Positions 3,425-29,454 of a DNA stretch of 64,000 nucleotides are shown piece by piece. The stretch spans positions 489,141 through 553,140 of the forward strand of contig JBBPIR010000001.1 of assembly GCA_038040195.1 (NCBI GenBank), given 5' to 3'. Source of the DNA: Chloroflexota bacterium (lineage in GTDB: Bacteria; Chloroflexota; Limnocylindria; QHBO01). The translations under genes were made by a program, and so were the position numbers. The stretch's first letter is position 1. The number at the start of each line of letters is the position of its first letter. Under the pieces are notes generated by a model that was not told the DNA's origin, did not search any database, and was given only the letters and a program-made list of their open reading frames with translations.

Positions 3425-3447
3425 CCCCCGCCCGCCAGGGTTGGCGC

Positions 3448-4185
3448 TCAGCGCGCGGCGTACTCCCGGGCCGCGGCCAGGAACGAGGCCCACAGGTTCT
3501 CGAACTCGGGCGACGTGAACTCGGTCCGCTCGGGATGGCTCTGGACTGCCATCAGCCAGCGGTCCGGATCGGTGTCCTCCAGGGCTTCCACCAGGTCACC
3601 GTCGGCATGCGCGCTGTAGCCGCTAATGCGCAGGCGCTGCCCCACCTGTTCGGGCCGGATGGCCTGGTGGTGGTAGGTGTTTACCGAGGCCACTGTCTCG
3701 CCCAGGATCACCTCGAGCCGCGTGCCGGGTTCGATGTCCAGGTCATGGGAGGTGGCCTCCGGCGCGGGGTACGCGGGGCTGGTGTGGCCCTCGAGGTCCT
3801 GGACCAGGGACCCACCCCGGAAGACGTTGATGGCCTGCATCCCGCGGCAGATGCCGAACACCGGGACGCGGCGCTCCTCGGCCACGGCGAATGCGGCCTG
3901 CTCAAGGGCGTCGCGACCGGGCTCCACCACGGTCGTCGGGTGCGGCTCCTCGCCGAACAGCGCGGGGTCCAGGTCGGCCCCGCCGGAGAGGAGCAGGCCA
4001 TCCATGGCCACGAACGCCGCCTCACGCTCGGCGGGGCTGCTGTCCTCGTTGAGGACGATGACCTCGCCTCCGTGCCGCCGCACCCCCTCGAAGTAGCGGT
4101 CGTTCTTGCGCCACGCCACTTCTTCGTTGCGCGCGTGCTCCGGCGACTGCACGGTGACCACGATCCGCGGGTTTCGCTGTACCAC
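3448..4185 (-). CDS. class I glutamine amidotransferase-like gamma-glutamyl hydrolase (PuuD/peptidase C26 family)
   Basis: 245 aa; catalytic Cys in GICRGMQ, YHHQ and VQSHPE motifs of gamma-glutamyl-GABA hydrolase family. Confidence 0.65.
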   Translation of the reverse strand: MVQRNPRIVVTVQSPEHARNEEVAWRKNDRYFEGVRRHGGEVIVLNEDSSPAEREAAFVAMDGLLLSGGADLDPALFGEEPHPTTVVEPGRDALEQAAFAVAEERRVPVFGICRGMQAINVFRGGSLVQDLEGHTSPAYPAPEATSHDLDIEPGTRLEVILGETVASVNTYHHQAIRPEQVGQRLRISGYSAHADGDLVEALEDTDPDRWLMAVQSHPERTEFTSPEFENLWASFLAAAREYAAR

Positions 4186-4237
4186 GGCCCGATCTTACGC
4201 GGCCCGGGCACCCTTCACGCTTCGCCCGCGTGCTGGG

Positions 4238-4504
4238 TCACATAGGCCGTCGTCGACTGGTCACCATCTGGAACAGGAAGACGACGATGATCGCGCCCAC
4301 GGTGGCGGCGACGAGTGTCGAGATGTTGATGCCGGTTGTGTAGTCCTCGCCGGTCAGCGAGCTGAAGAGGAAGCCCCCAAGCACGGCGCCAACGATGCCG
4401 GCCACCAGGCCGCCCAGCCATCCATAACGCTCGTCACCAGGAACCACTTTGCTGGCGATCCAGCCGGCAATTGCCCCCACCACTAACCACGCAATGATGC
4501 TCAT
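4238..4504 (-). CDS. GlsB/YeaQ/YmgE family stress-response membrane protein
   Basis: 88 aa, three hydrophobic Gly-rich helices (IAGWIA, GGLVAGIVGAVLGGFL) typical of transglycosylase-associated family. Confidence 0.7.
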   Translation of the reverse strand: MSIIAWLVVGAIAGWIASKVVPGDERYGWLGGLVAGIVGAVLGGFLFSSLTGEDYTTGINISTLVAATVGAIIVVFLFQMVTSRRRPM

Positions 4505-4529
4505 GTCTCCACTCCCTTCGGTTTGCCGG

Positions 4530-4742
4530 TCAGCCGAGAGATCGGATCACCCACGCGCTCGGGGCGGGGGCGGGTGGCTCTTCAGCCGGAGGTGCGGTCG
4601 TTCCGCCCCCGCTGCCACCCAAGAGGAAGTACCACACGATGAAGCCGATGACCAGGATCGCCACGACAAGCCCGACGATCATGCCGGCTCCGTAGCCACC
4701 TGACGAGCCATCGCTCGGAACGTTGACGTTCGTCTGTCCCAT
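4530..4742 (-). CDS. small hypothetical membrane protein
   Basis: 70 aa, single TM helix flanked by Gly/Pro-rich tails; no recognisable family. Confidence 0.3.
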   Translation of the reverse strand: MGQTNVNVPSDGSSGGYGAGMIVGLVVAILVIGFIVWYFLLGGSGGGTTAPPAEEPPAPAPSAWVIRSLG

Positions 4743-4896
4743 GGGCCGATAAACCTCCGTGCTCTGGGGCGACTGGTGTCGGAACTAACGCCCGTGAGAT
4801 CATCGAGTGGGACGCTGGCTTCGTCAAGCCCTTAGGTCCCTCCTGAGCACGGGTAAAGATGCAAACTGCAAGGATGCAAACCGGATTGAGGACGAG

Positions 4897-5745
4897 ATGA
4901 CCTTCGAGCCAGGCGCGCGCCTCGACCCCGGGCAGGTCCGTGACGTGCGAGGCAAGGGAGGCGTGCTGGCGGTCGGGGGTGGCATCGGCGGCGTGATTCT
5001 GCTGGTTCTCTTTGTCGCGCTGGGCGGCGACCCGTCCCAGCTGCCGCCGGGGCTGCTCGAGGGCCAGACGGTCGGCACCGGCCAAGAGAGTGACCTGACG
5101 GAGGAATGCCAGACGGGGGCGGATGCCAACCTGCGCGACGACTGCCGCATCGTCGGCTACGTGAACAGCGTCCAGGCCTACTGGACTGAGGCCGTGGACG
5201 GCTATACCCCGGCCCTGACCACGTTCTTCACCCAGGCGGTCAACACGGGCTGCGGCACGGCCTCGAGCGCGGTCGGCCCCTTCTACTGCCCGCCTGACGA
5301 GAGCGTCTACATCGACCTCGGCTTCTTCGACCAGCTGGAGACCCGCTTCGGCGCCGAAGGTGGGCCCTTCGCCGAGGCGTACGTCATCGCGCACGAGTAC
5401 GGCCACCATATCCAGAACCTGCTCGGGGACCTCCAGCCTGGCGGAGGAACGGGTGCCGAGAGCCATGCGGTGCGCACCGAGCTCCAGGCCGACTGCTACG
5501 CGGGGGTGTGGGCCAGCAATGCGGTTGAAACGGGCTACCTGGAGCCGATCACGCCTGAGCAGGTCGCCCAGGCGCTCGACGCCGCCTCAGCCATCGGCGA
5601 CGATCGGATCCAGGAGCAGACGCAGGGACAGGTGAACCCCGAGACCTGGACGCACGGCTCGTCCGAGCAGCGTCAGGCGTGGTTCCGCGTCGGGCTCGAC
5701 AGCGGCGACCCGAACGACTGCGACACGTTCAGCGCCGACATCTAA
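4897..5745 (+). CDS. neutral zinc metallopeptidase (YpfJ/PF04228-like)
   Basis: HEYGHH (HExxH) zinc motif, N-terminal TM anchor; start placed at ATG 4897 ([10 protein letters not shown]) within longer track ORF 4807..5745. Confidence 0.7.
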
Positions 5746-5765
5746 CTGAGTAGCCGCCCTCGACC

Positions 5766-5800
5766 GATGAGCAGAAGGCCCTGCTCGTCGAGCGCTTCCG
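5766..5800. terminator. candidate bidirectional terminator hairpin between convergent genes
   Basis: imperfect inverted repeat ctcgaccgatgagcag...ctgctcgtcgag located between stop of metallopeptidase (+) and stop of prk (-). Confidence 0.25.
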
Positions 5801-5809
5801 GCAGTGGGT

Positions 5810-6805
5810 TCAGCCGCTCGCCGCCGCCGAGGCCGCGGAGGCTCCGAACGTCAACCCGCGCTCCAAGCCGGCCTGCACGACCTGATAGGCGATGAGGAGT
5901 TGCGTGAGCGCCAGCGGGTCGGAGTGCCGCTCCACGCTGCCGTCGAGGTAACTGCCGATCTCCCCGGGACGGAGGTGACGATGCGTCTCCATGTGCGCCC
6001 AGATTCGCTCATCGAGCTCGAGAGAGCGTGAGGGCGAAACCGCTCCGTCGATCTCCAGGATGGAAGCGCCCGTAGCGTCCGCCTCCTGCTCGAGGCGAAT
6101 CGGGGGTGGCTCGTCCGCGGCGGCGCTCGCCAACACGTCGCCGAGGTCGAGCCGAGGAAGCCCAGGGCCGAGCCTGAGACGCACGTTCAGATGGGCGTCG
6201 TGATCGACGGCGGTTCCGGCCCGGAAATAGCCGGCCGGTGGGTAGAACTGGACGAGCATATCGGCGTACGCGCGCTGGGGTGCGAGGTACCGCCGATGGT
6301 CATCGCGCCTGTCGACGATCTGGCGGATGACTTCCGGCACGCTGTATCCGCGCTCCGCGCAGTCCCGCTTAACCTTCCAGGCCCACTTCAGCTCCTCCTG
6401 CGGCTGCAGCCACACGCGAACATCAAACGCGTTTCGCAGGTTCGCGGTCATCAGCGGAAAGAGGCCGCGGATGACGACGATCTCGCGCGGCTCGACATCC
6501 TCGCGCTGGCCGAAGGTCCCCGTCGAGTGGTCATAAGTTGGCTTCGAGATGGTCTCGCCGCGTGCAACAGCGGCGACCTGTCGCGCCATGAGCTCAATGT
6601 CGTTCGCGGCCGGGTTGAGGGCGGTCACGCCGAGCCGCTTGCGCTCTGCTCGGTCCAGCTTGTGGTAATCGTCGAGGCACAGGTTGGTGATCCGCTCCGC
6701 GCCGAAGATCCGATACAGGCCCCTGACCAGCGTCGTCTTGCCGCTGCCGCTGTCGCCTCCCACGGCCACCATGATCGGGCGATGGAAGTTCGTCGCCGCC
6801 ATCAA
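5810..6805 (-). CDS. prk: phosphoribulokinase
   Basis: 331 aa; P-loop GDSGSGKTT; strong similarity along length to cyanobacterial/bacterial PRK (ICLDDYH, ISKPTYDH, KWAWKVKRDCAERGYS); immediately downstream of rbcL on same strand. Confidence 0.85.
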   Translation of the reverse strand: MMAATNFHRPIMVAVGGDSGSGKTTLVRGLYRIFGAERITNLCLDDYHKLDRAERKRLGVTALNPAANDIELMARQVAAVARGETISKPTYDHSTGTFGQREDVEPREIVVIRGLFPLMTANLRNAFDVRVWLQPQEELKWAWKVKRDCAERGYSVPEVIRQIVDRRDDHRRYLAPQRAYADMLVQFYPPAGYFRAGTAVDHDAHLNVRLRLGPGLPRLDLGDVLASAAADEPPPIRLEQEADATGASILEIDGAVSPSRSLELDERIWAHMETHRHLRPGEIGSYLDGSVERHSDPLALTQLLIAYQVVQAGLERGLTFGASAASAAASG

Positions 6806-16385: not shown

Positions 16386-16460
16386 TGGAGCCGAAGGTGG
16401 GATTCGAACCCACGACCGACGGTTTACGAAACCGTTGCTCTACCCCTGAGCTACTTCGGC
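16386..16460 (-). tRNA. tRNA-Thr (anticodon CGT)
   Basis: manual fold: acceptor GCCGAAG/CTTCGGC, D arm GCTC-AGGGGTA-GAGC, anticodon arm ACGGT-TTCGTAA-ACCGT, T arm GTGGG-TTCGAAT-CCCAC, discriminator T, encoded CCA. Confidence 0.8.
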
Positions 16461-17339
16461 CCGATCGCCGGCCGATTTTAGCGCCTCTCCCTTTGCGCTC
16501 CCCAACCTGACCGAGGGCGGCGCCCAGCCGTGGAGCAGCTCGTCGTGGTAGCGCGGCCCGCGCTCCAGCGAACGGGGAATGGGGGCCATCCGCGCCTTTC
16601 CGCGCTGGACCAGGGCGAAGTACGGGCACAGGTCGGTGAGCGGGCACAGGCCGCAGATGGGGCGCGGGGCGCGGCACACCTCCCGCCCGTGGCGTATGAG
16701 CAGCACGTGCCCGGCGTACATGGCCTCGGGCGGCACCACTTCCTCCAGCAGGTCGTGGGCCCGGGTCAGGTCGGTCTTGGGCGGGAGCAGGCCCAGCCGG
16801 GAGGCGACTCGATAGACGTGGGTGTCGACCGGCAGCGCGGGCCGGCCGAACGCGAACAGGAGCACGATCGATGCCGTCTTGCGCCCAATCCCGGGCAGGC
16901 CCACCAGCCACTCGCGGGCCCGCTCGAGCGGCCACTCCCGCAGGTACCCGAGGTCCCAGGTCCCGTTCGTGGCGTCGTGGACCTCGGCCAGAACGAGCTG
17001 GATGCGGCGGGACTTGGTTGGGGCCAGCCCGCCGGGCCGGATGACGTCTGCCAGTTCGTCGGTCGGCGCAGCCAGCACGGCGTCCCACGACGGGTAGGCA
17101 GCCCGCAGGGCCACGAAGGCGCGGTGCGAATTCGTGTCGGCCGTGTTCTGGGCCAGCACGGTCAGGACCAGCTCCGCGACGGGGTCCAGCCGCGGACCGG
17201 ACCAGACCGGCATTCCGTATCGGTCAGCCAGGCGTTCCAGGATGGGACGGATGCGCGCGCGCCGCACGCGGCGCAGCGCGGCCAGCCGGCGGCGGTTGAC
17301 CCGCGATCGCACCCTGCGAGGTCGTGCGGCGTCCGTCAC
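16440..17339 (-). CDS. nth: endonuclease III family DNA glycosylase (HhH-GPD, 4Fe-4S)
   Basis: HhH motif LVGLPGIGRKTASIVLLFAF, catalytic D in PVDTHVYRV, Fe-S loop CRAPRPICGLCPLTDLCP; start uncertain (GTG 17339 chosen; track ORF extends to 17537); 3' end overlaps tRNA. Confidence 0.6.
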   Translation of the reverse strand: MTDAARPRRVRSRVNRRRLAALRRVRRARIRPILERLADRYGMPVWSGPRLDPVAELVLTVLAQNTADTNSHRAFVALRAAYPSWDAVLAAPTDELADVIRPGGLAPTKSRRIQLVLAEVHDATNGTWDLGYLREWPLERAREWLVGLPGIGRKTASIVLLFAFGRPALPVDTHVYRVASRLGLLPPKTDLTRAHDLLEEVVPPEAMYAGHVLLIRHGREVCRAPRPICGLCPLTDLCPYFALVQRGKARMAPIPRSLERGPRYHDELLHGWAPPSVRLGSAKGEALKSAGDRAEVAQG

Positions 17340-17624
17340 GCGGCTCCCAGCCTCGCGGTCTCGCGGGCATACCCGGCCCAGGCCCCGGCTCCGAGTCGCG
17401 AGGCCTGGCCCAGGTCGACGATCCGACCCCGACCATCCTGCCGCGTGGCCCACGCGTCCGCGTGGTCGGGTGAGCAGAGCAGCACGGTTGGGGTGCAGAA
17501 CTCGGCCCTCAAGTCCGTTCCGCCGGCGGCCAACCACAGGCGCTGGGGTGGCTCGGCCTCGGCCCCGATCGGTACCCGGAGCGTGAATGCGGTGCGCCGC
17601 ACGATCTCGTCGACGTCTCGCACG

Positions 17625-18800
17625 TTAGCCTCGGCTCCCCAATCCCTGACCGATGTCGATGCTGCGCGCCAACCGGGCAGCCGCATTGGCCAGCAGGCGT
17701 TCGGTGTCGGCCATGGCGATTTCCAGGCCGAGTGGTCGATCGATGATGGGCTGCACCACGGCGAACGCCCCCGACTCCTCGACGATCTCGGCGCCTGGGC
17801 CCAGGCCGCCGCACAGCAGGACGACCGGGGCATTGCCGGCATGATGGGCCACCCCCAGCGCCGCCTTGCCGGCCAGGGTCTGCTCGTCGGCCCGCCCCTC
17901 CCCGGTGATGACCAGGTCCGCCCCCTCGCAGGCCGCCGCCAGGCCCACCAGGTCGGCCACGACCTCCACGCCGGAGCGCAGCTCGGCGGAGGTGAAGCCC
18001 AGCAGCCCGGCCGTTGTCCCGCCGGCCGCGCCGGCGCCTCGGACCTCCGCCACGTCGCGACCCGTCGCTCGTCGGATCTCGGCTCCCCAGCGCACCAGGG
18101 CCTCGTCCAGCTCGGCGACGGCGTCGGGGTCCGCGCCCTTCTGCGGCCCGTAGCTCGCGGCTGCGCCGTTCGGCCCGGTCAGGGGGTTGGTGACGTCGGA
18201 AGCGATCAGGATCTCGACCTCGGCCAGCCGCGGATCGAGCCCGTCGGCGTCGACGTGGTCCAACGTCGCCAGGGCCGCGCCGCCGTCCGGCACCTGGCCC
18301 CCGCGGGCGTCGAGCAGCCGGAGCCCCATCTCGACCAGCAGCCCCGCCCCGCCATCGGTGGTGGCCGATCCGCCAAGGCCAACCACGATCCGTCCCGTGC
18401 CGGCATCCAGCGCCGCCGCGATGAGCCGTCCCGACCCCCGGGTCGTGGCCAACCGAGCACTGGTCGACGTCCGCTCCGCCAAGGCCAGCCGCGCCAGCCC
18501 GCTGGCCGCCGCCATCTCCACGAACCCCGTTGCACCGCCGTCGAGCGCCAGCCAGTCCGCGCTGATCGGCCGGCCCAGGGGATCGGTCGTCATCACCGTG
18601 TTCCGGGTGGCCGCGCTTCCCCGAGCTGCGGCGATCGCGGCCAGGGTCCCCTCGCCCCCGTCCGCCATCGGGATCTTCACCACCACATCGTCGGGCCGCG
18701 CCGAGGCCCAGCCGCGGGCCATGGCCTCGGCGACCGCCACCGAGTCCAGCGCACCCCCGAACGAGTCGGGAGCCACGACCACGCGCAGCGGCGGGCTCAT
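17625..18800 (-). CDS. glycerate kinase (GlxK/GarK family)
   Basis: 391 aa; VVAPDSFGGAL N-terminus and Gly-rich GLGGSATTDGGAG motifs. Confidence 0.8.
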   Translation of the reverse strand: MSPPLRVVVAPDSFGGALDSVAVAEAMARGWASARPDDVVVKIPMADGGEGTLAAIAAARGSAATRNTVMTTDPLGRPISADWLALDGGATGFVEMAAASGLARLALAERTSTSARLATTRGSGRLIAAALDAGTGRIVVGLGGSATTDGGAGLLVEMGLRLLDARGGQVPDGGAALATLDHVDADGLDPRLAEVEILIASDVTNPLTGPNGAAASYGPQKGADPDAVAELDEALVRWGAEIRRATGRDVAEVRGAGAAGGTTAGLLGFTSAELRSGVEVVADLVGLAAACEGADLVITGEGRADEQTLAGKAALGVAHHAGNAPVVLLCGGLGPGAEIVEESGAFAVVQPIIDRPLGLEIAMADTERLLANAAARLARSIDIGQGLGSRG

Positions 18801-20707
18801 CGGGAAAGCTCCTTGCGCCTCGCGAGGTAGGCGGGGATCGTGTTCATCGGCGGTCGAATCTCGTCCCCCACCTCGCGGACCTCCAGGCTGAATTTGTCAC
18901 CTTCCTGGCGGATCTGCTTCATCCGCTCGCCCATGTCGGTCAGCAGCTCAATCCGCTGACGCTCCTCCAGCTTGGTGATCCCGGCCTTGAGGATGACAAA
19001 GGCCATCCGCGACAGGTCCAGCAGCGACTGGTTGCGATGGATGCGGCGCTCGAGGTCGACCTGCCCGATGCCGGACAGGCCGACGCGGTCCAGGATGTCG
19101 ATGAGCAGCCCGATCTCGACCGCGTAGCCGGTGAAGAACGGCACCGACTCGAGGAGCGCGCGACGCCCCGCGTACTCCCCGGCCAGGGGTTGGATGATGC
19201 CGGACAGCTCGGGGAAGAACAGGTTGATGAGCGGGCGAGCGGTCAGCTCTGTCACCCGTCCGCCCTCGTCGGGCTGGCGCCGCCCGCCAGCCGTCAGGGG
19301 CCGTTGGTAGAAGGCCTTCACGTAGTGGATCCGCGACTCGCGCAGGAGCGGGCCCAGCAGGCCGTACACGAAGCGAGGCTGGATGTTGCGGATGTCGGTG
19401 TCGACCCAGACCACGATGTCCCCGCGCAGCTCGTACAGGCTCTTCCACAGCGCTTCGCCCTTGCCGACGTGGCTCCCCAGCTCCGGGAGGATGGTGTCGT
19501 GCTGGCGGACGGGTGCCCCCAGCTCGCGGGCGATCTCCACCGTTCGGTCGGTGGAGGCCGAGTCGATGACGAGCAGCTCGTCCACCAACGGCACGCGGTC
19601 CATGAGCGCATCGCGAATGCGACGGATGACCAGCCCGATGGTCTTCTCTTCGTTCAGGGTCGGTAGTCCCACGCTGATGGTCAGGCCCTGGCGCTCCTTG
19701 AGGTCCACCAGGCGCTTGAGGTCGCGAAATTCGCTGGTGTCGAACGTGTTCTCGGCAAACCAGCGGTCGACCACGCTCGGCAGGCTGCGGGTCTGCTCGA
19801 TGGCGGCGTCCGCGGCGGGCAGGCTTCCGGTCTCGGCCCGGAGATGTTCGAAGGTGACTGCGGTGAACGGTTGTCGGGTCTTGACCACCATCACGGTTGG
19901 CTTGGCGCGGCTGGCGACTGTCTCCGCCAGCCGCCCGAACAGGCGCCGGCCCGATCCGGCTCCGGTCGGCTGGGCAGAGGCCCCGACCACAACCAGGTCG
20001 TGGTTCGCGGCCTCTTGCAGGATGGCGCCCCGAACGGTCGGCGCCTCCACCAGCAGCTGGCGGACCTTGACCCCTCGGGTATTACGCCTGACCAGGCGGC
20101 CAAGCGCCGCCCGCTCGTCCTCGAGCGCGGCCGAGCCACCCTCGGGCGGGACCACGTGCAGAACGACCAGCTCAGCGCCGAAGCCGCGCGCCAGGTCGGT
20201 GGCCAGCGAGAGCGCCAGCTCGGCATTCGGACCTCCCCGAACCGGGACCAGGATGGAGCGGACGGTTCCCAGTGCGCGCTGCTTGACCACGGCGATATCG
20301 CATGGGGCCTCACGGACGACCTGGTCAATGGTGGTCGAGAAGACCGCGTGCCGCAGGCCGGTCGGTTGGGGGCCGCCCCAGCCGAAGACCACCAGGTCGG
20401 CCCCGATCTCGGCCACCGCCTCCACGATCCCCTCCGACGCCTGGCGGCCGATGCGGACCGCGGTATGGACCTCGACCGACGCGTCGTCCCGGAAGTCAGG
20501 CACCCGCTGGAGCAGGCGGCGGGCCTGGCGCGCGCGGCTGGCGCCCTCCGCCAGCGACACGCCCTCGGGGACCTCGACGATGCCCAGCGCGGTGATCTCG
20601 GTGGGCCGCCGGTGGGCGAGGTGGGAACCGATGCGGATCAGGTCGCGCGCGGTGCGCGGGTTGGCCAGCGGCATGAGGACCCGATACGGACCACGCCGGC
20701 GGGCCAT
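18797..20707 (-). CDS. tandem universal stress protein (UspA) domains fused to glucosyl-3-phosphoglycerate synthase-like GT-A glycosyltransferase
   Basis: 636 aa; two USP-like halves (LVVFGWGG, LVVVGAS); C-terminal GT-A domain ISVGLPTLNEEKTI, LVIDSASTDRT, WVDTDIRN (DxD) resembling GpgS/MpgS; 4 nt overlaps with both neighbours. Confidence 0.55.
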   Translation of the reverse strand: MARRRGPYRVLMPLANPRTARDLIRIGSHLAHRRPTEITALGIVEVPEGVSLAEGASRARQARRLLQRVPDFRDDASVEVHTAVRIGRQASEGIVEAVAEIGADLVVFGWGGPQPTGLRHAVFSTTIDQVVREAPCDIAVVKQRALGTVRSILVPVRGGPNAELALSLATDLARGFGAELVVLHVVPPEGGSAALEDERAALGRLVRRNTRGVKVRQLLVEAPTVRGAILQEAANHDLVVVGASAQPTGAGSGRRLFGRLAETVASRAKPTVMVVKTRQPFTAVTFEHLRAETGSLPAADAAIEQTRSLPSVVDRWFAENTFDTSEFRDLKRLVDLKERQGLTISVGLPTLNEEKTIGLVIRRIRDALMDRVPLVDELLVIDSASTDRTVEIARELGAPVRQHDTILPELGSHVGKGEALWKSLYELRGDIVVWVDTDIRNIQPRFVYGLLGPLLRESRIHYVKAFYQRPLTAGGRRQPDEGGRVTELTARPLINLFFPELSGIIQPLAGEYAGRRALLESVPFFTGYAVEIGLLIDILDRVGLSGIGQVDLERRIHRNQSLLDLSRMAFVILKAGITKLEERQRIELLTDMGERMKQIRQEGDKFSLEVREVGDEIRPPMNTIPAYLARRKELSR

Positions 20708-21939
20708 CAGCCCGGCCCCCCGACCTTTCCCCCGGCCGACTGCGCCTGCCAGGCGCGGACCAGCCAGGGCTTGAGGTCCTCGAACTCGCGGGCCTGGCTC
20801 TCGACCAGCCGTTCGGCCTGCTCATCGGTCATCTCACGAGCCTCATTGAAGAAGCCCGCGGTACGCCCGAAGTACAGCCCGGTCAGGCCCGCCAGCAGCG
20901 CGTCGCGGTCGATGCCCGGCCGTTGAAAGGCGAGCAACGCGTCGTAGAGGCAGCGGATCCAGAGCTCCGAGGGGAAGGTGAAGGCCGCAGGGTCCTCGGC
21001 AGGCAGCGCCAGCACCCGTTCCAGCTGCTCCCCGGCCAGGGTCCGCTTCCACACCTGGCGCTGGGCCAGGCGCGCGGTCTCGAACGCGTCCACGAGCTTG
21101 GCCTGGTTGACCGTTATCGCCTCTGGCAGCACCACCCGCTCGAAGCCGTACTCGGGAACCGGCTGCGAGCCGCGGACCGGGAGCCACGCCTCGGACATCG
21201 AGCCAGCCAGCCGGAACAGGGTGCCGACCACCTGCCGGAACATGGGTCCCAGGTCAGAGGCGGGATCCTTGGGGTCGTGGATCTTGGCCCCCAGCCTGGT
21301 CTGGCACACCGCAAACCCGGCGGCCAGGGCGTGGTGAGTCATCCAGACGTCGATCCCGAACTTCGCCGTGGCCTCGTCCCAGTCGTCGAGTTCCAGCAGG
21401 GCGTTGACCAGGTCGCGGCTGAAGGCGAACTCGCCCCCGATCGGCTGGCGCATCCGCCGCCCATACAGGGTCCGCGTCAGGGGGTAGGCGATCTGGTTGG
21501 TGATGGTCCCGTCGAACTTGTGGCGCGCGTACAGAGGGGCCACGTAGTCGTAGCCGCCCTTCAGGATCGGACCCGCCAGCAGCTCTATCCACTCGGGCAC
21601 GATGCTCCGCAGGTCGGAGTCGACCAGCACCAGGGCCTCGACCTTCAGCTCGCGGGCGACCTCCAGCAGCGCCCGGACGGCGGACCCCTTGCCGCTCGGC
21701 CCGCGGTAGGTGACCGCGACCCGTCGCAGCCGATGCGGCGGCCGGACCAGGATCATCTTTTCGAGGTAGGCGGGGCTCTCCGTGCTGACCGCCACCCGTG
21801 GCGTGTCGTCGGGCGATCCCCCGTCGGCGTTGACCAGGACCGGCTTCAACTCCGGGAAGTACTGGACCATGCCGGCCATGGCGGCCCGGACGACGTAACC
21901 GATGGTGTCGGCGTTGCCGAAGCTGGGGATCCCGACCAT
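20707..21939 (-). CDS. GT-A fold glycosyltransferase (family 2-like), specificity unknown
   Basis: MVGIPSFGNADTIGYVV start typical of GT2, VLVDSDL (DxD); start at ATG 21939 uncertain, GTG 22008 possible. Confidence 0.5.
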   Translation of the reverse strand: MVGIPSFGNADTIGYVVRAAMAGMVQYFPELKPVLVNADGGSPDDTPRVAVSTESPAYLEKMILVRPPHRLRRVAVTYRGPSGKGSAVRALLEVARELKVEALVLVDSDLRSIVPEWIELLAGPILKGGYDYVAPLYARHKFDGTITNQIAYPLTRTLYGRRMRQPIGGEFAFSRDLVNALLELDDWDEATAKFGIDVWMTHHALAAGFAVCQTRLGAKIHDPKDPASDLGPMFRQVVGTLFRLAGSMSEAWLPVRGSQPVPEYGFERVVLPEAITVNQAKLVDAFETARLAQRQVWKRTLAGEQLERVLALPAEDPAAFTFPSELWIRCLYDALLAFQRPGIDRDALLAGLTGLYFGRTAGFFNEAREMTDEQAERLVESQAREFEDLKPWLVRAWQAQSAGGKVGGPG

Positions 21940-22004: not shown

Positions 22005-22703
22005 TCACCGGGTGATCTCGCGCTTCTTGCGTCCCTTCCAGAACAGGCCGGTCACGCCGGGGTGCCGGTCTGGGTCGATGGTGATGATGATCCAGTCCTC
22101 GTTCGACGTCCCGGGCCGGTAGCGCGAGTTGGCGTGCTTGGCCACCGCGCGGCTGAATCCGTTCTCCTGCCAGGCGTGGAACCACGACCGGAGTGGCATC
22201 TTGATCGAGGGCGTGACCCGCAGCCGAACACTCTCGCTGACCACCCCCGACAGGAGGCGGCGGCGCTCCTGGTACGGGTGCTCACCCAAGAACTGCCCGT
22301 CCAGCTCGATGAGGTCGACGACCACGAATGCGCGCCGCTTCTCCAGCTGCGCGGGATCGGGTCCGTCCTCGGGCAGATCGCCGGCCTCGTCGGCCAGCGC
22401 TTCGGACCAGCGTTCGGCCGCCGATCCGCGACCCAGGAACGGCTGTGCGGTCCAGATCCCGTCCAGCACCGCCTGGTCGGCGTCGACCGAGGTCCGCAGC
22501 ACCTCGGCCAGGTCGCCGTAGAACTCGTCGACGGCGTGTCCGCCGGCATCGGTCAGGCGAATTTCGCCGTCCGCGACGCGAGCCAGCAGCCGTTCCCCGA
22601 TCCAGTACGGCTCGAACGACCAATGCGGACTGTTGATTCCGACGCTCGCCTCGGTGGCGAGCTGGGGGCGGATCGGCTCGTCGCCCAAGGGCTGATCGGT
22701 CAT
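22005..22703 (-). CDS. ATP-dependent DNA ligase-domain-like protein, predicted catalytically inactive
   Basis: motif III FVVVDLIELDG, motif IV/V ENGFSRAVAKHANSRYRPGTSNEDWIII recognisable; motif I reads FEPYWIGER instead of EPKxDGxR. Confidence 0.45.
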   Translation of the reverse strand: MTDQPLGDEPIRPQLATEASVGINSPHWSFEPYWIGERLLARVADGEIRLTDAGGHAVDEFYGDLAEVLRTSVDADQAVLDGIWTAQPFLGRGSAAERWSEALADEAGDLPEDGPDPAQLEKRRAFVVVDLIELDGQFLGEHPYQERRRLLSGVVSESVRLRVTPSIKMPLRSWFHAWQENGFSRAVAKHANSRYRPGTSNEDWIIITIDPDRHPGVTGLFWKGRKKREITR

Positions 22704-23836
22704 CGGTACAGGCCCAGCTCCCCCTCTTCGACCTCCATGCCCACCTCGGACCGGATGGCCTGCCACGCGTCGAGATCCCACTCGGCGACGAACGTGATGG
22801 CCGTGCCGGCACGCCCCATTCGCGCCGTGCGACCCACCCGGTGGACGTAGGTGTCCGCGTCCTCGGGGATGTCGTAGCTCAGGACGTACGGCAGGTCGGT
22901 GATGTCCAGCCCGCGGCTGGCGACATTGGTGGCCACCAGGAACTGGATCTCCCCCGCCTTGAAAGCGGCCAGCGTCTTCTCCCGCTCCCGCTGGGACAGG
23001 CCGCCATGGAGGGCGGCCGCGTTCCTGCCCCGCCGCTTGAGCGAGGCGCTCAGCCGATCCACGCCGATCTGGGTATGGCGGAAGATGAGGAGCCGATCGA
23101 ACCCGAACCCATCGGCCAGCTCAATCAGGGCCGCCACTTTGTCCTGCTCGGCCACGAAGTAGACCATCTGGCGGACCGTTTCGACCAACTTCAGCTCGGG
23201 ACGGACCGCGATGTGGTCCGCGTCGCGGCGCATGAACCGATCGCAGATGCGGAGGATGGCGTACGGCATGGTGGCGCTGAACAGCGCCGTCTGGCGTTGG
23301 CGCGGGCAGCGGGCCAGGATCGTCTCCACGTCCACGATGAAGCCCATGTCCAACATCCGGTCGGCCTCGTCGAGGATCACGGTCCGCACCGATTCCAGGC
23401 GCAGCTCCCCTCGACGGATGAGGTCGAGAACGCGCCCCGGGGTGCCGATCACGACTTGCGCTCCGCGCTGGAGGGCGGTGATCTGGCGGTCCATGGCCGC
23501 TCCGCCGTAGATGGCCACCGTCTTGACGTTCCGGAAGCGCCCGATGCGGGCGATCTCGGCGGTGACCTGCTGGCACAGCTCCCGGGTGGGGGTCAGGATC
23601 AGGGCCTGGACCGATTTCGAGCCGGGGTCCACGTGCTCGACGATGGGGATCCCGAACGCGGCCGTCTTGCCCGTCCCGGTCTGGGCCTGACCGATGAGAT
23701 CGTGGCCCGCCCGGAGGGGCGGAATAGCCCGGGCCTGGACCTCGGTGGGCGTGACGTAGCCCATCTGCTCCAGGGCGCGGGCGATGGTGACCGGGACCTC
23801 GATGTCCCCGAACCGATACCCGGCCGCAGCGGCCAT
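22700..23836 (-). CDS. DEAD-box ATP-dependent RNA helicase
   Basis: Q motif, AQTGTGKT, PTRELC, DEAD, SAT, HRVGRTAR; start at ATG 23836 (track ORF extends to 23968 with Arg/Pro-rich leader). Confidence 0.8.
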   Translation of the reverse strand: MAAAAGYRFGDIEVPVTIARALEQMGYVTPTEVQARAIPPLRAGHDLIGQAQTGTGKTAAFGIPIVEHVDPGSKSVQALILTPTRELCQQVTAEIARIGRFRNVKTVAIYGGAAMDRQITALQRGAQVVIGTPGRVLDLIRRGELRLESVRTVILDEADRMLDMGFIVDVETILARCPRQRQTALFSATMPYAILRICDRFMRRDADHIAVRPELKLVETVRQMVYFVAEQDKVAALIELADGFGFDRLLIFRHTQIGVDRLSASLKRRGRNAAALHGGLSQREREKTLAAFKAGEIQFLVATNVASRGLDITDLPYVLSYDIPEDADTYVHRVGRTARMGRAGTAITFVAEWDLDAWQAIRSEVGMEVEEGELGLYR

Positions 23837-24070
23837 CACGGCCGCAGTCAGCGCGGAGAGGGGTTCGGCAGTCGGTTCGGCGGTGGGCTGGCGGCCGTCG
23901 GTGTGCGGCGGCGGGACCGGCGCGCGGCGACGCGTTCGGCGACGGGGCGTGGTCGGGGTTGGCGGCAAGCAGTGGCTCCGGCAGGTTGTTGATCGGTTGC
24001 TCGGATCGTAGCACGGGCGCTTCCCGCGCCTTGACGGCGGCCCATTACGCGTTGATACTGCGTCTCAGGT

Positions 24071-26517: not shown

Positions 26518-27951
26518 CTAGGCCGATTCCGAAGCGCCAGGTCCGGTGTTGTGGTGCTTCGACGCACCACCCTGGCCGGCCGTCGCCGCCTCGCGGGCCA
26601 ACCGCAATAGCGGCTCCCGGTTGTTGAGCGCGGGGTCGTCCAGGACGGCCTGCAGCAATTCGTCGAGGATCCGCCCGATTTCCGGGCCAGGCGCCATGCC
26701 AAGCTCCGCGATGAGATCATCCCCATCCACCGCCAGCTCGCGGACCGAAAGGACCGCGGCTCCCCGGAGTGCGGCCAGGCGCCGCTCCAGCTCGTCGGCG
26801 GCGCGGTCACGCAGCTCCGGTCCGACCGACGCGGCGGTATCGGCGCGGCGCAACGCCAGCAGATCGTCCAGCGGCTGGCCGGCGCCGATGCGGCGCAGGA
26901 AGCGGCGCACGGCGGCATCGGACCAGTCGGACGTGTAGTGGATGAGGTGGTGACGCACCAGGTGGCTGACGCGATCGATCTCGGTGCGGGGGAAGGCCAG
27001 CTCCCGCAAGCGGCGCTCGACGAGCTGAGCGCCGACCGACTCGTGGCCGATGAAGTGGCCGTCGGCAGCGGTGGGCGCCTTGCCCACGTCGTGGAGCAAT
27101 CCGGCCAGGCGGAGCACCGGGTCCGCGGCCGGCAGCGCATCCACGGCCCTCAGGGAGTGATCCAGGGCGTCGCCACCCAGGACCTTGCCCTGCTCCACGC
27201 CCCGCAGGGCCGCCAGCTCGGGAAGCACCACGCCCAGCAGCCCCAGCCGCTCCATCAGGGAGAACCCGCGTGACGGCTCCTCCGCGGCCAGGAGCCGGAG
27301 CAGTTCGTCGCGCACCCGCTCCCCGGAGAGCTGCTCCGCGGCCGGGGCCAGCCGCGTCGCGGCGGCCTCCGTGGCGGGGTCCAGGGTTAAGCCCAGGGTG
27401 GTGGCGAAACGCACGGCCCGCAGGAGGCGCAGCGCGTCCTCGGTGAATCGCTGCTCCGCGTCCCCCACCGCGCGCAGGGCGCCGGCCGCCAGGTCCGCCT
27501 GCCCGCCGTACGGGTCGACCACGTGGCCGCGCCCCGCGGCCAGGTCATCGGGCACCCAGGCCATGGCGTTGATCGTGAAGTCGCGTCGTTCCAAGTCGTC
27601 CTCGAGCCGCGTCCCCCACCGCACCTCCGACGGGTGGCGCGCGTCGCGGTACCCGGCTTCGGTGCGGTAGGTCGTCACCTCCACCGCCATCGGTCCGGAT
27701 CGGACGGTTACGGTCCCGTACGGATTGACCCAGGTGGAGTCCGGGAACAGCGCGGCCACCACGTCCGGAGGAGCGGACGTGGCCACGTCCCAGTCGCCGG
27801 GCTCGACCCCGCGGACCAGGTCGCGCACGCAGCCCCCGACCAGCGCGGCCTCGTGACCGGCGGCAGCCAGGTCACCCAGGACGGCGGTGACCGGGGCGGG
27901 GAGCCTCAGTTCCGTGGCTTGGGCTCGTCCAGGAACAGGAACGTCCGCCAA
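26518..27951 (-). CDS. CCA tRNA nucleotidyltransferase / poly(A) polymerase family with HD domain
   Basis: GGCVRDL, polymerase-beta head, LLHDVGK HD motif; start possibly downstream of 27951. Confidence 0.7.
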   Translation of the reverse strand: MADVPVPGRAQATELRLPAPVTAVLGDLAAAGHEAALVGGCVRDLVRGVEPGDWDVATSAPPDVVAALFPDSTWVNPYGTVTVRSGPMAVEVTTYRTEAGYRDARHPSEVRWGTRLEDDLERRDFTINAMAWVPDDLAAGRGHVVDPYGGQADLAAGALRAVGDAEQRFTEDALRLLRAVRFATTLGLTLDPATEAAATRLAPAAEQLSGERVRDELLRLLAAEEPSRGFSLMERLGLLGVVLPELAALRGVEQGKVLGGDALDHSLRAVDALPAADPVLRLAGLLHDVGKAPTAADGHFIGHESVGAQLVERRLRELAFPRTEIDRVSHLVRHHLIHYTSDWSDAAVRRFLRRIGAGQPLDDLLALRRADTAASVGPELRDRAADELERRLAALRGAAVLSVRELAVDGDDLIAELGMAPGPEIGRILDELLQAVLDDPALNNREPLLRLAREAATAGQGGASKHHNTGPGASESA

Positions 27952-28436
27952 GCGTCGTTCCGCTCATCGGTCAGATAGGAGCCATACAGGTAGCGCGCGT
28001 CGGCGCGCGGGGCGCGCGGCTCGCGGCGCAGGGCCATCCGCGACTCGGCCAGAGTCTTGGAACCCTTGCGATGATTGCAGCGCCGGCAGGCGGCGACCAG
28101 GTTTTCCCACTCGTGGCGGCCGCCGCGGTGGCGTGGTACGACGTGGTCGATCGTCAGGTCGTGGGTGGCGGTGCCGCAGTACTGGCAGCTATGGCGGTCC
28201 CGGGCGAACACCTCGCGCCGCGAGAGCTTGACCCGGGGCTGGGGCCGGCGGACGAGATACACCAGGCGAATGACCGATGGCGCGTCGAAGGCGCGGCTGA
28301 CGGTGTGGATCACCTGGTGGTTGCGGGCGATCAGCTCCGCCTTCTCGGCGCCGAGCAGCCGGAAGGCGCGCCTGATGTCGCAGACGTTGAGGGCTTCGTA
28401 ATTCTGGTTGAGAACCAGGACTGGTGCGTTGAGCAA
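27906..28436 (-). CDS. HNH endonuclease
   Basis: CQYCG...[10 protein letters not shown]...[16 protein letters not shown]; start set at TTG 28436 ([14 protein letters not shown]); overlaps start of CCA enzyme gene by ~46 nt. Confidence 0.55.
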
Positions 28437-28539
28437 TCCGAGCCTCCGTGCGCGCGATGATAGCGGAGCCGCCAACGAGGCCCGGCAACCAGGCCCACCG
28501 ATCGGATCCTCGAGGGGCCGCGAGTACAATGCGGGCCTG

Positions 28540-29454
28540 ATGACGACCACCGAGCCAACCACCCACGACCTCACCCAAACCTCGACCTGGGCGACCAAGG
28601 TCGGGCTGGCGCGCATGCTCGCCGGCGGGGTGATCATGGACGTCGTGACCGCCGATCACGCCCGGATTGCTGAGGAAGCGGGCGCGGTGGCGGTGATGGC
28701 CCTCGAGCGCGTCCCATCCGACATCCGCAAGCACGGTGGGGTGGCCCGCATGAGCGACCCCAAGCTGATCGAGGACATCAAGCGGGCGGTCACCATCCCG
28801 GTCATGGCCAAGTGCCGGATCGGCCACTTCGTCGAAGCCCAGATCCTCCAGGCCCTGGAGGTCGACTACATCGACGAGTCGGAGGTCCTGACTCCGGCCG
28901 ACGAGGCGCACCACATCGACAAGCACCGCTTTGACGTGCCGTTCGTGTGCGGCTGCCGCGACCTGGGCGAGGCCCTGCGCCGGATCGGCGAGGGCGCGGC
29001 CATGATCCGGACCAAGGGCGAGGCGGGCACCGGCAACGTGGTCGAGGCCGTGCGCCACATGCGCGCCGTACGGTCCGGCATCGCGCAGCTGCGCACCATG
29101 CGTTCGGACGAGCTCTTCGCTACCGCCAAGGAGCTGCGCGCCCCGCTGGAGGTCGTCCGGCAGGTGGCCGAGCTGGGCGAGCTGCCGGTCCCCAACTTCT
29201 CGGCCGGCGGCGTCGCCACCCCTGCCGACGCGGCCCTCATGCGCCAGCTCGGCGCGGAGGCCGTGTTCGTAGGCAGCGGGATCTTCAAGGCCGAGCATCC
29301 GGAGAAGGTCGCGCGGGCCATCGTCAAGGCCACCACCCACTACGACAACGCGGAGATCCTGGCCGAGGTCAGCGCGGGGCTGGGTGAGCCGATGCGTGGC
29401 CTGGAGCTGGCCGAGATCCCTGCCGAGGAGCGGCTGGCCACCCGGGGTTGGTAG
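28540..29454 (+). CDS. pdxS: pyridoxal 5'-phosphate synthase lyase subunit PdxS
   Basis: near full-length identity to PdxS family ([24 protein letters not shown]); start at ATG 28540. Confidence 0.9.

Follow-up and report, generated by a model that had tools for sequence, protein, structure and literature searches.

The gene at 22005..22703 on the minus strand of the window, as we call the whole 64,000-nucleotide stretch of DNA analyzed here, in all likelihood encodes a ligase-derived pseudoenzyme, hereafter the pseudo-ligase. We favor, with a probability of roughly 0.55, the reading that this protein is a stable, selected, and catalytically dead derivative of a LigD-type nucleotidyltransferase (NTase) domain serving as a non-catalytic binding module. 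The initial annotation had also proposed a ligase-derived pseudoenzyme lacking the adenylation nucleophile, and this is borne out by an HMM alignment with LigD, by the count of motif I lysines (0 of 293 homologs compared with 52 of 52 real ligases), and by purifying selection. The gene lies in the following neighborhood:

22700..23968, minus strand: DEAD-box RNA helicase, consisting of the core without a C-terminal RNA-binding extension (Pfam, NCBIfam)
22700..22703, minus strand: ATGA overlap of the helicase TGA stop and the pseudo-ligase ATG start (from the sequence)
22005..22703, minus strand: pseudo-ligase coding sequence, 232 aa, a stand-alone LigD-type NTase domain without catalytic residues or OB domain (HMM matches, fold)
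22008..22091, minus strand: C-terminal tail of the pseudo-ligase, 28 aa, net charge +4 (…GLFWKGRKKREITR), predicted to be disordered (pLDDT, tail lengths)
20707..21939, minus strand: GT81-like glycosyltransferase (GpgS/MGS relative), 65 nt downstream, the steadiest neighbor
18797..20707, minus strand: fusion of a tandem Usp with glucosyl-3-phosphoglycerate synthase (GpgS), 386.8 bits against a cut-off of 262
17625..18800, minus strand: glycerate kinase, joined to GpgS by an ATGA overlap
16440..17537, minus strand: endonuclease III-family HhH-GPD glycosylase (EndoIII-like), the last gene of the same-strand run

The open reading frame of the pseudo-ligase begins with the ATG at 22703-22701 and runs for 232 codons, opening MTDQPLGDEPIRPQLATEA; its translation contains WSFEPYWIGER, FVVVDLIELDG, and SRYRPGTSNEDWIIIT as they were first quoted. 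Pfam PF01068 (DNA_ligase_A_M) matches residues 26-205 with 34.5 bits against a gathering score of 26.2. LigD-type NCBIfam models match with E = 3e-23, far under their full-length cut-offs because the adenylyltransferase part alone is matched. The best matches among PDB sequences are to the ligase domain of M. tuberculosis LigD (6nhx, 6nhz, and 1vs0; E about 1e-12). In this alignment, WAFEGKWDGYRLL is set against WSFEPYWIGERLL, which places Y33 on the motif I lysine of LigD and I35 on the aspartate, the same K-to-Y and D-to-I replacements that the initial annotation had described.

An AlphaFold2 model computed with 23 family members has a mean pLDDT of 79, and 121 of 232 residues reach 90 or more; confidence is low in an internal loop at about residues 90-122 and in the last 19 residues (214-232, pLDDT <50). 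The model adopts the predicted NTase fold, and a Foldseek search against the PDB ranks archaeal DNA ligases and LigD first (E = 6e-14 to 3e-11). The similarity to ligases is far above chance, and the protein has both the NTase fold and the PF01068 domain. Judged from its sequence, it belongs by descent to the LigD/LigC branch of PF01068. A family-specific insert, comprising a helix at residues 95-107 and an acidic loop, is also present, with W/T/Q/P/F residues after motif III.

The catalytic motifs map to the following segments:

22590..22622, minus strand: motif I remnant WSFEPYWIGER; E31, G36, and R38 kept, Lys nucleophile replaced by Y33 and Asp by I35
22449..22469, minus strand: motif III remnant VLDGIWT; D81 and G82 kept, ribose-contacting Glu replaced by I83
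22296..22328, minus strand: motif IIIa FVVVDLIELDG; aromatic F126 and D130 kept
22137..22154, minus strand: motif IV remnant SRAVAK; Glu-Gly replaced by Ser-Arg (S184-R185), aliphatic V187 and K189 kept
22080..22097, minus strand: motif V remnant DWIIIT; both lysines replaced (I206, T208), W204 kept

In real ligases, motif III reads VLDGE(I/V)V, motif IV EGhhAK, and motif V DWhKhK. Some of the original motif labels need correction. FVVVDLIELDG, which had been called motif III, is motif IIIa (the aromatic/Asp strand), motif III being VLDGIWT, and motif IV is SRAVAK, not SRYRPG. Both motif V lysines are lost, as had been stated; the residues in their place are I206 and T208.

We compared three groups in a family HMM alignment: 119 close homologs of the pseudo-ligase with 47-99% identity (tier 1), 174 short, lysine-less, more distant homologs (tier 2), and 52 real ligases with K and D in motif I. 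The residues at the catalytic positions are distributed as follows:

Motif I Lys position (Y33): tier 1, Tyr 85, Ala 11, Cys 9, Phe 7, Ser 7; tier 2, Leu 80, Ala 46, Val 18, and others; real ligases, Lys 52
Motif I Asp position (I35): tier 1, Ile 54, Arg 17, Ser 15, Lys 10, and others; tier 2, partly Asp or Glu; real ligases, Asp 52
Motif III Glu position (I83): tier 1, Ile or Val; tier 2, Tyr; real ligases, Glu 51
Motif IV Glu-Gly (S184-R185): tier 1, Ser or Thr, then Arg or His; tier 2, Arg or Gly, then Gly or Glu; real ligases, Glu 52, Gly 52
Motif V Lys-x-Lys (I206, T208): tier 1, Ile, Val, Glu, or Gln, then Ser, Thr, or Pro; tier 2, Thr, Ile, or Leu, then mostly absent; real ligases, Lys 52, Lys 47

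The initial annotation had asked whether orthologs retain the motif I Lys; it is found in 0/119 close and 0/174 distant homologs, compared with 52/52 real ligases. Nor does any alignment bring a Lys from elsewhere onto this position in the pseudo-ligase, an outcome that had been named as grounds for giving up the pseudoenzyme reading. A minor sub-clade (10/119), to which the window protein does not belong, carries a Lys at the Asp position, two residues further on. A lysine supplied from another part of the protein was ruled out: K189 is the sole invariant Lys, K122 and K168 being variable, and the motif IV Lys to which K189 is equivalent is not a nucleophile in any ligase. The Glu residues of motifs III and IV are found in neither tier (51/52 and 52/52 in real ligases), and the same holds for the first Lys of motif V (52/52 in real ligases); the second motif V position is Lys in 14/119 tier 1 sequences. 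Other positions are kept among the 293 lysine-less sequences, namely E31 (292), G36 (292), R38 (290), D81 (284), G82 (284), an aromatic residue at 126 (266), D130 (293), K189 (283; invariant in tier 1 and 164/174 in tier 2), and W204 (291). The motif IV aliphatic residue (187) is kept in tier 1 only and is mostly Ala in tier 2.

The pseudo-ligase stops 28 residues past the motif V Trp, and a glycosyltransferase gene follows, leaving no OB domain or motif VI. Pfam finds no OB domain (PF04679) in the protein, and multidomain LigD queries against the 64-kb window match the NTase part of the pseudo-ligase and nothing else. A truncated or split ligase was ruled out, as no canonical ligase, OB, Pol, or PE coding sequence lies within the window. 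The features that define a DNA ligase (motif I, the Glu residues of motifs III and IV, motif V, and OB/motif VI) are all missing. With no nucleophile, metal or ribose acids, phosphate lysines, or motif VI, the protein lacks the means for ligase chemistry, and the residue pattern predicts neither self-adenylylation nor nick sealing. The loss extends further than first described, since it also takes in the Glu of motif III, the Glu-Gly pair of motif IV, and the entire OB domain. It dates far back and is shared by every member of an orthologous family that covers the class Limnocylindria. JGI pipelines name members of this family “bifunctional NHEJ protein LigD” or “ATP-dependent DNA ligase”; annotation as a DNA ligase should be avoided, because the protein fails on every catalytic feature.

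Structures of real ligases offer a guide to what has been kept. The cofactor base lies sandwiched between an aromatic residue of motif IIIa and an aliphatic one of motif IV, the motif IV lysine touches adenine N1, the acidic motif I residue N6, and the motif I arginine the ribose, while the motif V lysines contact the nick phosphate (PMC7470946, a review of ligase structures). Taken together with the conservation counts, these roles show that, at the level of residue identity, most base-contact positions are retained in the family and the phosphate, metal, and nucleophile positions are replaced, mostly by hydrophobics. Retention of the adenine-pocket residues could have a purely structural cause, such as a buried Glu-Lys pair. 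Since ribose and phosphate contacts are lost, canonical ATP binding by the pseudo-ligase appears unlikely. The pattern parts fold and base-binding residues from catalytic ones, a dissection of the ligase fold made by nature.

The family is under selection. Pairwise Nei-Gojobori comparisons with eight orthologs give dN/dS values of 0.08-0.31 for the pseudo-ligase, compared with 0.07-0.17 for the helicase and 0.05-0.15 for the downstream glycosyltransferase. About 45 positions are invariant in an alignment of 23 diverse tier 1 members, numerous Arg residues among them (R38, R123-124, R147-149, R162, and R194). Identity between the tiers is about 35-40% for the pseudo-ligase vs about 55% for the glycosyltransferases, so that the pseudo-ligase evolves faster than its neighbors. 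A protein search returned 187 matches; among the 120 matches listed, nearly all are about 230 aa long (most 232 aa), and the named proteins come from Limnocylindria or Chloroflexota MAGs. A scan with one genome per GTDB species yielded 110 loci; the 80 listed lie in Limnocylindria, Chloroflexia, or Chloroflexota MAGs, save for a few contigs binned elsewhere. These few non-Chloroflexota contigs are probably mis-binned, and apart from them every record with an informative name belongs to Limnocylindria or Chloroflexota. Tier 2 was exposed by an exhaustive profile search, in which its members outscore all genuine LigDs. These proteins are about 235 aa long, with motif I reading EPLWxGxRV, followed by PLLERKRLL, KAANSRYxPG, and DW without lysines. 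They fall into more than 2369 clusters, of which the two with names are both Limnocylindrales. Tier 2 genes sit at the syntenic position of the window gene and are therefore orthologs from deeper branches of the class. As far as seen, the family is confined to this one bacterial class.

The closest solved relative, the LigD/LigC ligase domain (M. tuberculosis LigD, 1vs0/6nhx), shares the NTase fold with the pseudo-ligase, which differs from LigD in having neither the catalytic residues nor OB/motif VI, Pol, and PE domains. The neighbors examined in the window include neither Ku nor any other NHEJ gene, and, judged from the 64-kb window, the protein does not qualify as a bacterial NHEJ LigD. 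Loss of the catalytic lysine from an NTase fold is also seen in the m3G-cap-binding domain of snurportin-1 (1xk5), although that protein is eukaryotic, shares 13% sequence identity with the pseudo-ligase, and has the m3GpppG cap as its ligand. Given this origin and identity, the lysine was very probably lost independently in the two. The middle domain of poxvirus A20 (VACV)/A22 (MPXV) keeps an OB sub-domain within a larger viral protein, and its similarity to the pseudo-ligase is much weaker than that of real ligases. We regard snurportin-1 and A20 as analogues, which would work like the pseudo-ligase, and not as members of its family by descent. Damage-response operons of proteobacteria that encode a ligase-associated DEXH helicase (Lhr-like) and a LigB-type ligase also place a helicase next to a ligase-family gene, as here. 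This system was ruled out by model scores: the window helicase, a DEAD-box RNA type, scores 53 bits against a TIGR04121 cut-off of 850, and the catalytically dead pseudo-ligase scores 18.8 bits against a TIGR04120 cut-off of 400. A part in anti-phage defense was rejected on the PADLOC result, in which the pseudo-ligase has no match and the helicase has generic superfamily-2 matches only.

Described non-catalytic uses of the ligase fold are eukaryotic (snurportin-1) or viral (poxvirus A20). In the literature searched, no bacterial family of pseudoenzymes that arose from an ATP-dependent DNA ligase is described, and we found nothing relevant on this family or on a Limnocylindria DNA ligase. A class-wide, selected, OB-less dead ligase domain shows that the fold has been repurposed in bacteria too, and the family offers a concrete starting point for identifying the ligands of such domains. 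Because of the JGI labels, reconstructions of Limnocylindria from genomes will over-call the capacity for NHEJ and ATP-dependent ligation. Limnocylindria is an abundant uncultured class of soil and freshwater.

The upstream helicase scores 168.7 bits with Pfam DEAD and 96.6 bits with Helicase_C. Its top NCBIfam models are of the CshA, DbpA, and RhlE types, all under their equivalog cut-offs. The matches end at residues 385-417 of 422, about 5-37 residues from the C-terminus, which leaves no C-terminal RNA-binding extension. The ATGA coupling of the two genes, pointed out in the initial annotation, is real in the window but recent and lineage-specific rather than a property of the family: a zero gap is limited to relatives sharing 84% identity or more (L005-L010). 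Of the 69 tier 1 loci, 66 have a DEAD-box helicase no more than 600 nt upstream, and all 69 have one within 3 kb; in L057, L060, and L068, an oppositely oriented CLC-channel gene (2.7 kb) separates it from the pseudo-ligase. In tier 2, the helicase is found in 0/39 loci, and MFS transporters, short-chain dehydrogenases, or response regulators lie upstream. Helicase adjacency as a family-wide trait was ruled out on this count. The pseudo-ligase extends past the motif V Trp by a median of 28 aa in tier 1 vs 8 aa in tier 2. The tail is present in the helicase-bearing lineage only, with a conserved pattern G(L/R)(F/L)xGxRx(K/R). Co-occurrence of tail and helicase, together with translational coupling, suggests that in this lineage the pseudo-ligase has a secondary link to RNA or the helicase.

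Downstream, the genes are tightly packed, the junctions in the window being, in order, ATGA (helicase/pseudo-ligase), a 65-nt spacer, TGATG (the GpgS start overlapping the glycosyltransferase stop), and ATGA. The solved relatives of the GT81-like gene are GpgS and mannosylglycerate synthase only, and the EndoIII-like glycosylase has D. radiodurans EndoIII-1 as its nearest match (E = 5e-48). For loci with at least 5.9 kb of downstream sequence (49 in tier 1 and 18 in tier 2), the GT81-like gene is present in 46/49 and 18/18, respectively, and GpgS and glycerate kinase likewise; the EndoIII-like gene lies within 6 kb in 43/49 and 12/18. In both tiers, 3-70 nt separate the pseudo-ligase from the GT81-like gene that follows it. 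Five tier 1 loci (L041, L047, L069, L075, and L080) have lost the sugar cassette; the pseudo-ligase persists in all of them, and all keep the EndoIII-like gene downstream, at a distance of 9 nt in L041 and L047 and directly next to it in L069. The whole neighborhood (HNH, CCA-adding enzyme, epimerase, and others) is syntenic across the class, and the gene order may reflect descent rather than shared function. In one class with a fully syntenic neighborhood, gene order is weak evidence of a functional link.

From the residue pattern, we tentatively suggest that the pseudo-ligase has a non-catalytic role in binding a ligand or nucleic acid. A nucleic-acid end or a ligand containing adenine would occupy the old cofactor cleft, much as snurportin-1 grips a cap with this fold; alternatively, the protein might act as a scaffold, like poxvirus A20. 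DNA binding is expected to be weak for an NTase domain that has neither an OB nor a DNA-binding domain beside it. In its conserved setting, the pseudo-ligase is the first gene of a packed stress-type operon (GT81-like, Usp-GpgS, glycerate kinase, and EndoIII-like). In the window's lineage, a DEAD-box helicase without a C-terminal domain (CTD) has been placed in front and the pseudo-ligase has acquired its 28-aa basic tail, and in the closest relatives the two genes have become translationally coupled. A more specific role is a long shot, namely that the emptied cleft still recognizes adenine and the protein reads adenylylated or adenine-capped 5′ ends (AppDNA/AppRNA intermediates of abortive ligation, NAD/Ap4A-type RNA caps) or an adenine-nucleotide signal and feeds the stress operon. 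If so, an adenine reader would couple nucleic-acid damage or energy state to the stress operon, and here also to a DEAD-box helicase, and would be a prokaryotic counterpart of snurportin-type cap reading.

The genes on either side of the pseudo-ligase suggest other functions. The dead domain and its tail could be a helicase cofactor, supplying in trans the substrate-binding CTD for which the helicase has no room and targeting it to nicked or 5′-phosphorylated RNA or DNA. ATGA coupling in the window and its closest relatives, the helicase upstream in 69/69 tier 1 loci, and the restriction of the +4 tail to the helicase-neighbor lineage all fit this idea, but it is doubtful: the pseudo-ligase is equally conserved in the deeper branch, where 0/39 loci have the helicase, so the ancestral function must be helicase-independent, and the CLC-channel gene parts the two genes in three tier 1 loci. 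An unlikely proposal is that the protein is a regulatory or accessory subunit of a glucosylglycerate-type compatible-solute pathway, sensing an adenine nucleotide or NDP-sugar and modulating the GT81-like enzyme, GpgS, or glycerate kinase. It would explain the first position in the operon, 3-70 nt before a cassette found in 18/18 tier 2 and 46/49 tier 1 loci, the stop/start codon overlaps that run through the operon, and the kept adenine-pocket residues. Set against this are the five tier 1 loci in which the pseudo-ligase outlives the whole cassette and the weakness of synteny inside one class as evidence. We know of no ligase-fold protein that regulates a glycosyltransferase. The literature searched also yielded no such regulator and nothing relevant on glucosylglycerate with Chloroflexi.

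We consider it quite unlikely that the pseudo-ligase is a non-catalytic binder of nicks or DNA ends that acts in base-excision repair alongside the EndoIII-like glycosylase, e.g., by shielding a strand-break intermediate or passing it on. Its descent from an NHEJ/BER-type ligase domain, whose usual substrate is a 5′-phosphorylated nick, speaks for such a role, as do the many invariant Arg residues, the EndoIII-like gene at the end of the same-strand run, and its place directly after the pseudo-ligase when the sugar cassette is missing (L041, L047, and L069). Adjacency after deletion is expected from geometry alone, however, the protein lacks both an OB and a DNA-binding domain, and it has lost the motif V lysines with which real ligases contact the nick phosphate (PMC7470946). 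That the protein is still an enzyme, with a non-canonical nucleophile (e.g., Tyr33 or Lys189) or a different reaction on the ligase scaffold, is highly improbable. Tyr does occupy the nucleophile position in 85/119 close homologs, K189 is invariant in tier 1 and present in 164/174 tier 2 sequences, and pseudoenzymes with unexpected chemistry exist, the pseudokinase SidJ being one example. Elsewhere, however, Ala, Cys, Phe, Ser, Leu, or Val is found at position 33, so there is no conserved nucleophile and cryptic activity is unlikely; the metal and ribose acids and phosphate lysines are replaced by hydrophobics, and motif VI/OB is missing. The probability that the gene is a decaying remnant or a truncated annotation of a real LigD is close to nil. 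JGI names it LigD and it covers only the NTase part of that protein, but the reading frame is intact and keeps a length of about 230 aa in >100 species and thousands of clusters, with dN/dS values of 0.08-0.31 and about 45 invariant positions, and no OB, Pol, or PE sequence lies nearby. Selection and conservation data exclude a decaying pseudogene.

Rfam shows no cis-regulatory RNA or attenuator around the operon, a tRNA-Thr after the glycosylase being the sole match, and a simple scan, which is weak in a high-GC genome, finds no minus-strand terminator-like site within the gene run. The EndoIII-like gene probably has its true start near 17216. A GNAT gene is sometimes interposed in the downstream cassette.

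Among the neighbours of the pseudo-ligase (the 232-residue LigD-type nucleotidyltransferase-domain protein without the motif I lysine), the most constant is a GT81-like glycosyltransferase encoded downstream of it, on the same strand as the following genes of the window.

27906-28637 (-), HNH endonuclease gene
26518-27951 (-), CCA-adding or poly(A)-polymerase-type nucleotidyltransferase gene
20707-21939 (-), GT81-like glycosyltransferase, 410 aa, a relative of GpgS and mannosylglycerate synthase
18797-20707 (-), glucosyl-3-phosphoglycerate synthase with a pair of universal-stress-protein domains fused at its N-terminus
16386-16460 (-), tRNA-Thr, anticodon CGU, directly 3' of the EndoIII-like ORF

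The GT81-like protein passed a single curated cut-off, that of Pfam MGS_GT (29.8 bits versus 27), and missed all others; its C-terminal ~160 residues gave no match. The fused glucosyl-3-phosphoglycerate synthase gene starts within a TGATG junction, overlapping the stop of the gene before it, and is followed by a glycerate kinase gene across an ATGA overlap. At the 3' end of the run, the predicted end of the EndoIII-like ORF, a HhH-GPD glycosylase gene, shares ~20 nt with tRNA-Thr (CGU), downstream of which lies a weak terminator-like hairpin (window 16348-16335).

The HNH gene runs into the start of the nucleotidyltransferase gene that follows it, and the pair is syntenic at every Limnocylindria locus examined. 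PADLOC returned weak PtuB-like matches for the HNH protein. At three homologue-bearing loci (L057, L060, and L068, at about 3300-6000), an opposite-strand CLC chloride-channel gene, encoding CBS and TrkA-C domains, lies between the DEAD-box helicase and pseudo-ligase genes, which as a result of this insertion are no longer adjacent in these genomes.

Database annotation of the lysine-less, OB-less homologues differs by source. JGI pipelines give proteins P0001-P0120 and P0270-P0381 either the name "bifunctional non-homologous end joining protein LigD" or the name "ATP-dependent DNA ligase"; NCBI labels them hypothetical proteins.

Within the close homologues, a sub-clade (P0111, P0119, P0120, P0130, P0133, and P0148) carries the motif I sequence EPCWKGxR, in which a lysine stands two residues C-terminal to its canonical place, at the usual Asp site. 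Such a shifted lysine occurs in 10 of the 119 close homologues and is absent from the window protein.

A separate lineage of short (~205 aa) lysine-less LigD-like proteins is represented by P0144 and P0205 (L170 3203-3811 and L169 200-826), with motif I reading (Y/H)(L/I)LEP(C/A)WQG. The gene contexts of this lineage differ: at L169 a gene with glutamate-dehydrogenase-like motifs lies downstream, while at L170 the lysine-less gene is preceded by NfeD/Band7 genes and has a LigT gene nearby. The occurrence of this lineage in different gene contexts suggests that the motif I lysine was lost more than once among LigD-like proteins. Two further ligase-like proteins, P0233 (448 aa) and P0249 (327 aa), retain the OB domain (PF04679), but their motif I lysine is replaced by Asp (EPDWAG and ELDWGG); these are possibly dead or altered full-length LigC-type proteins.
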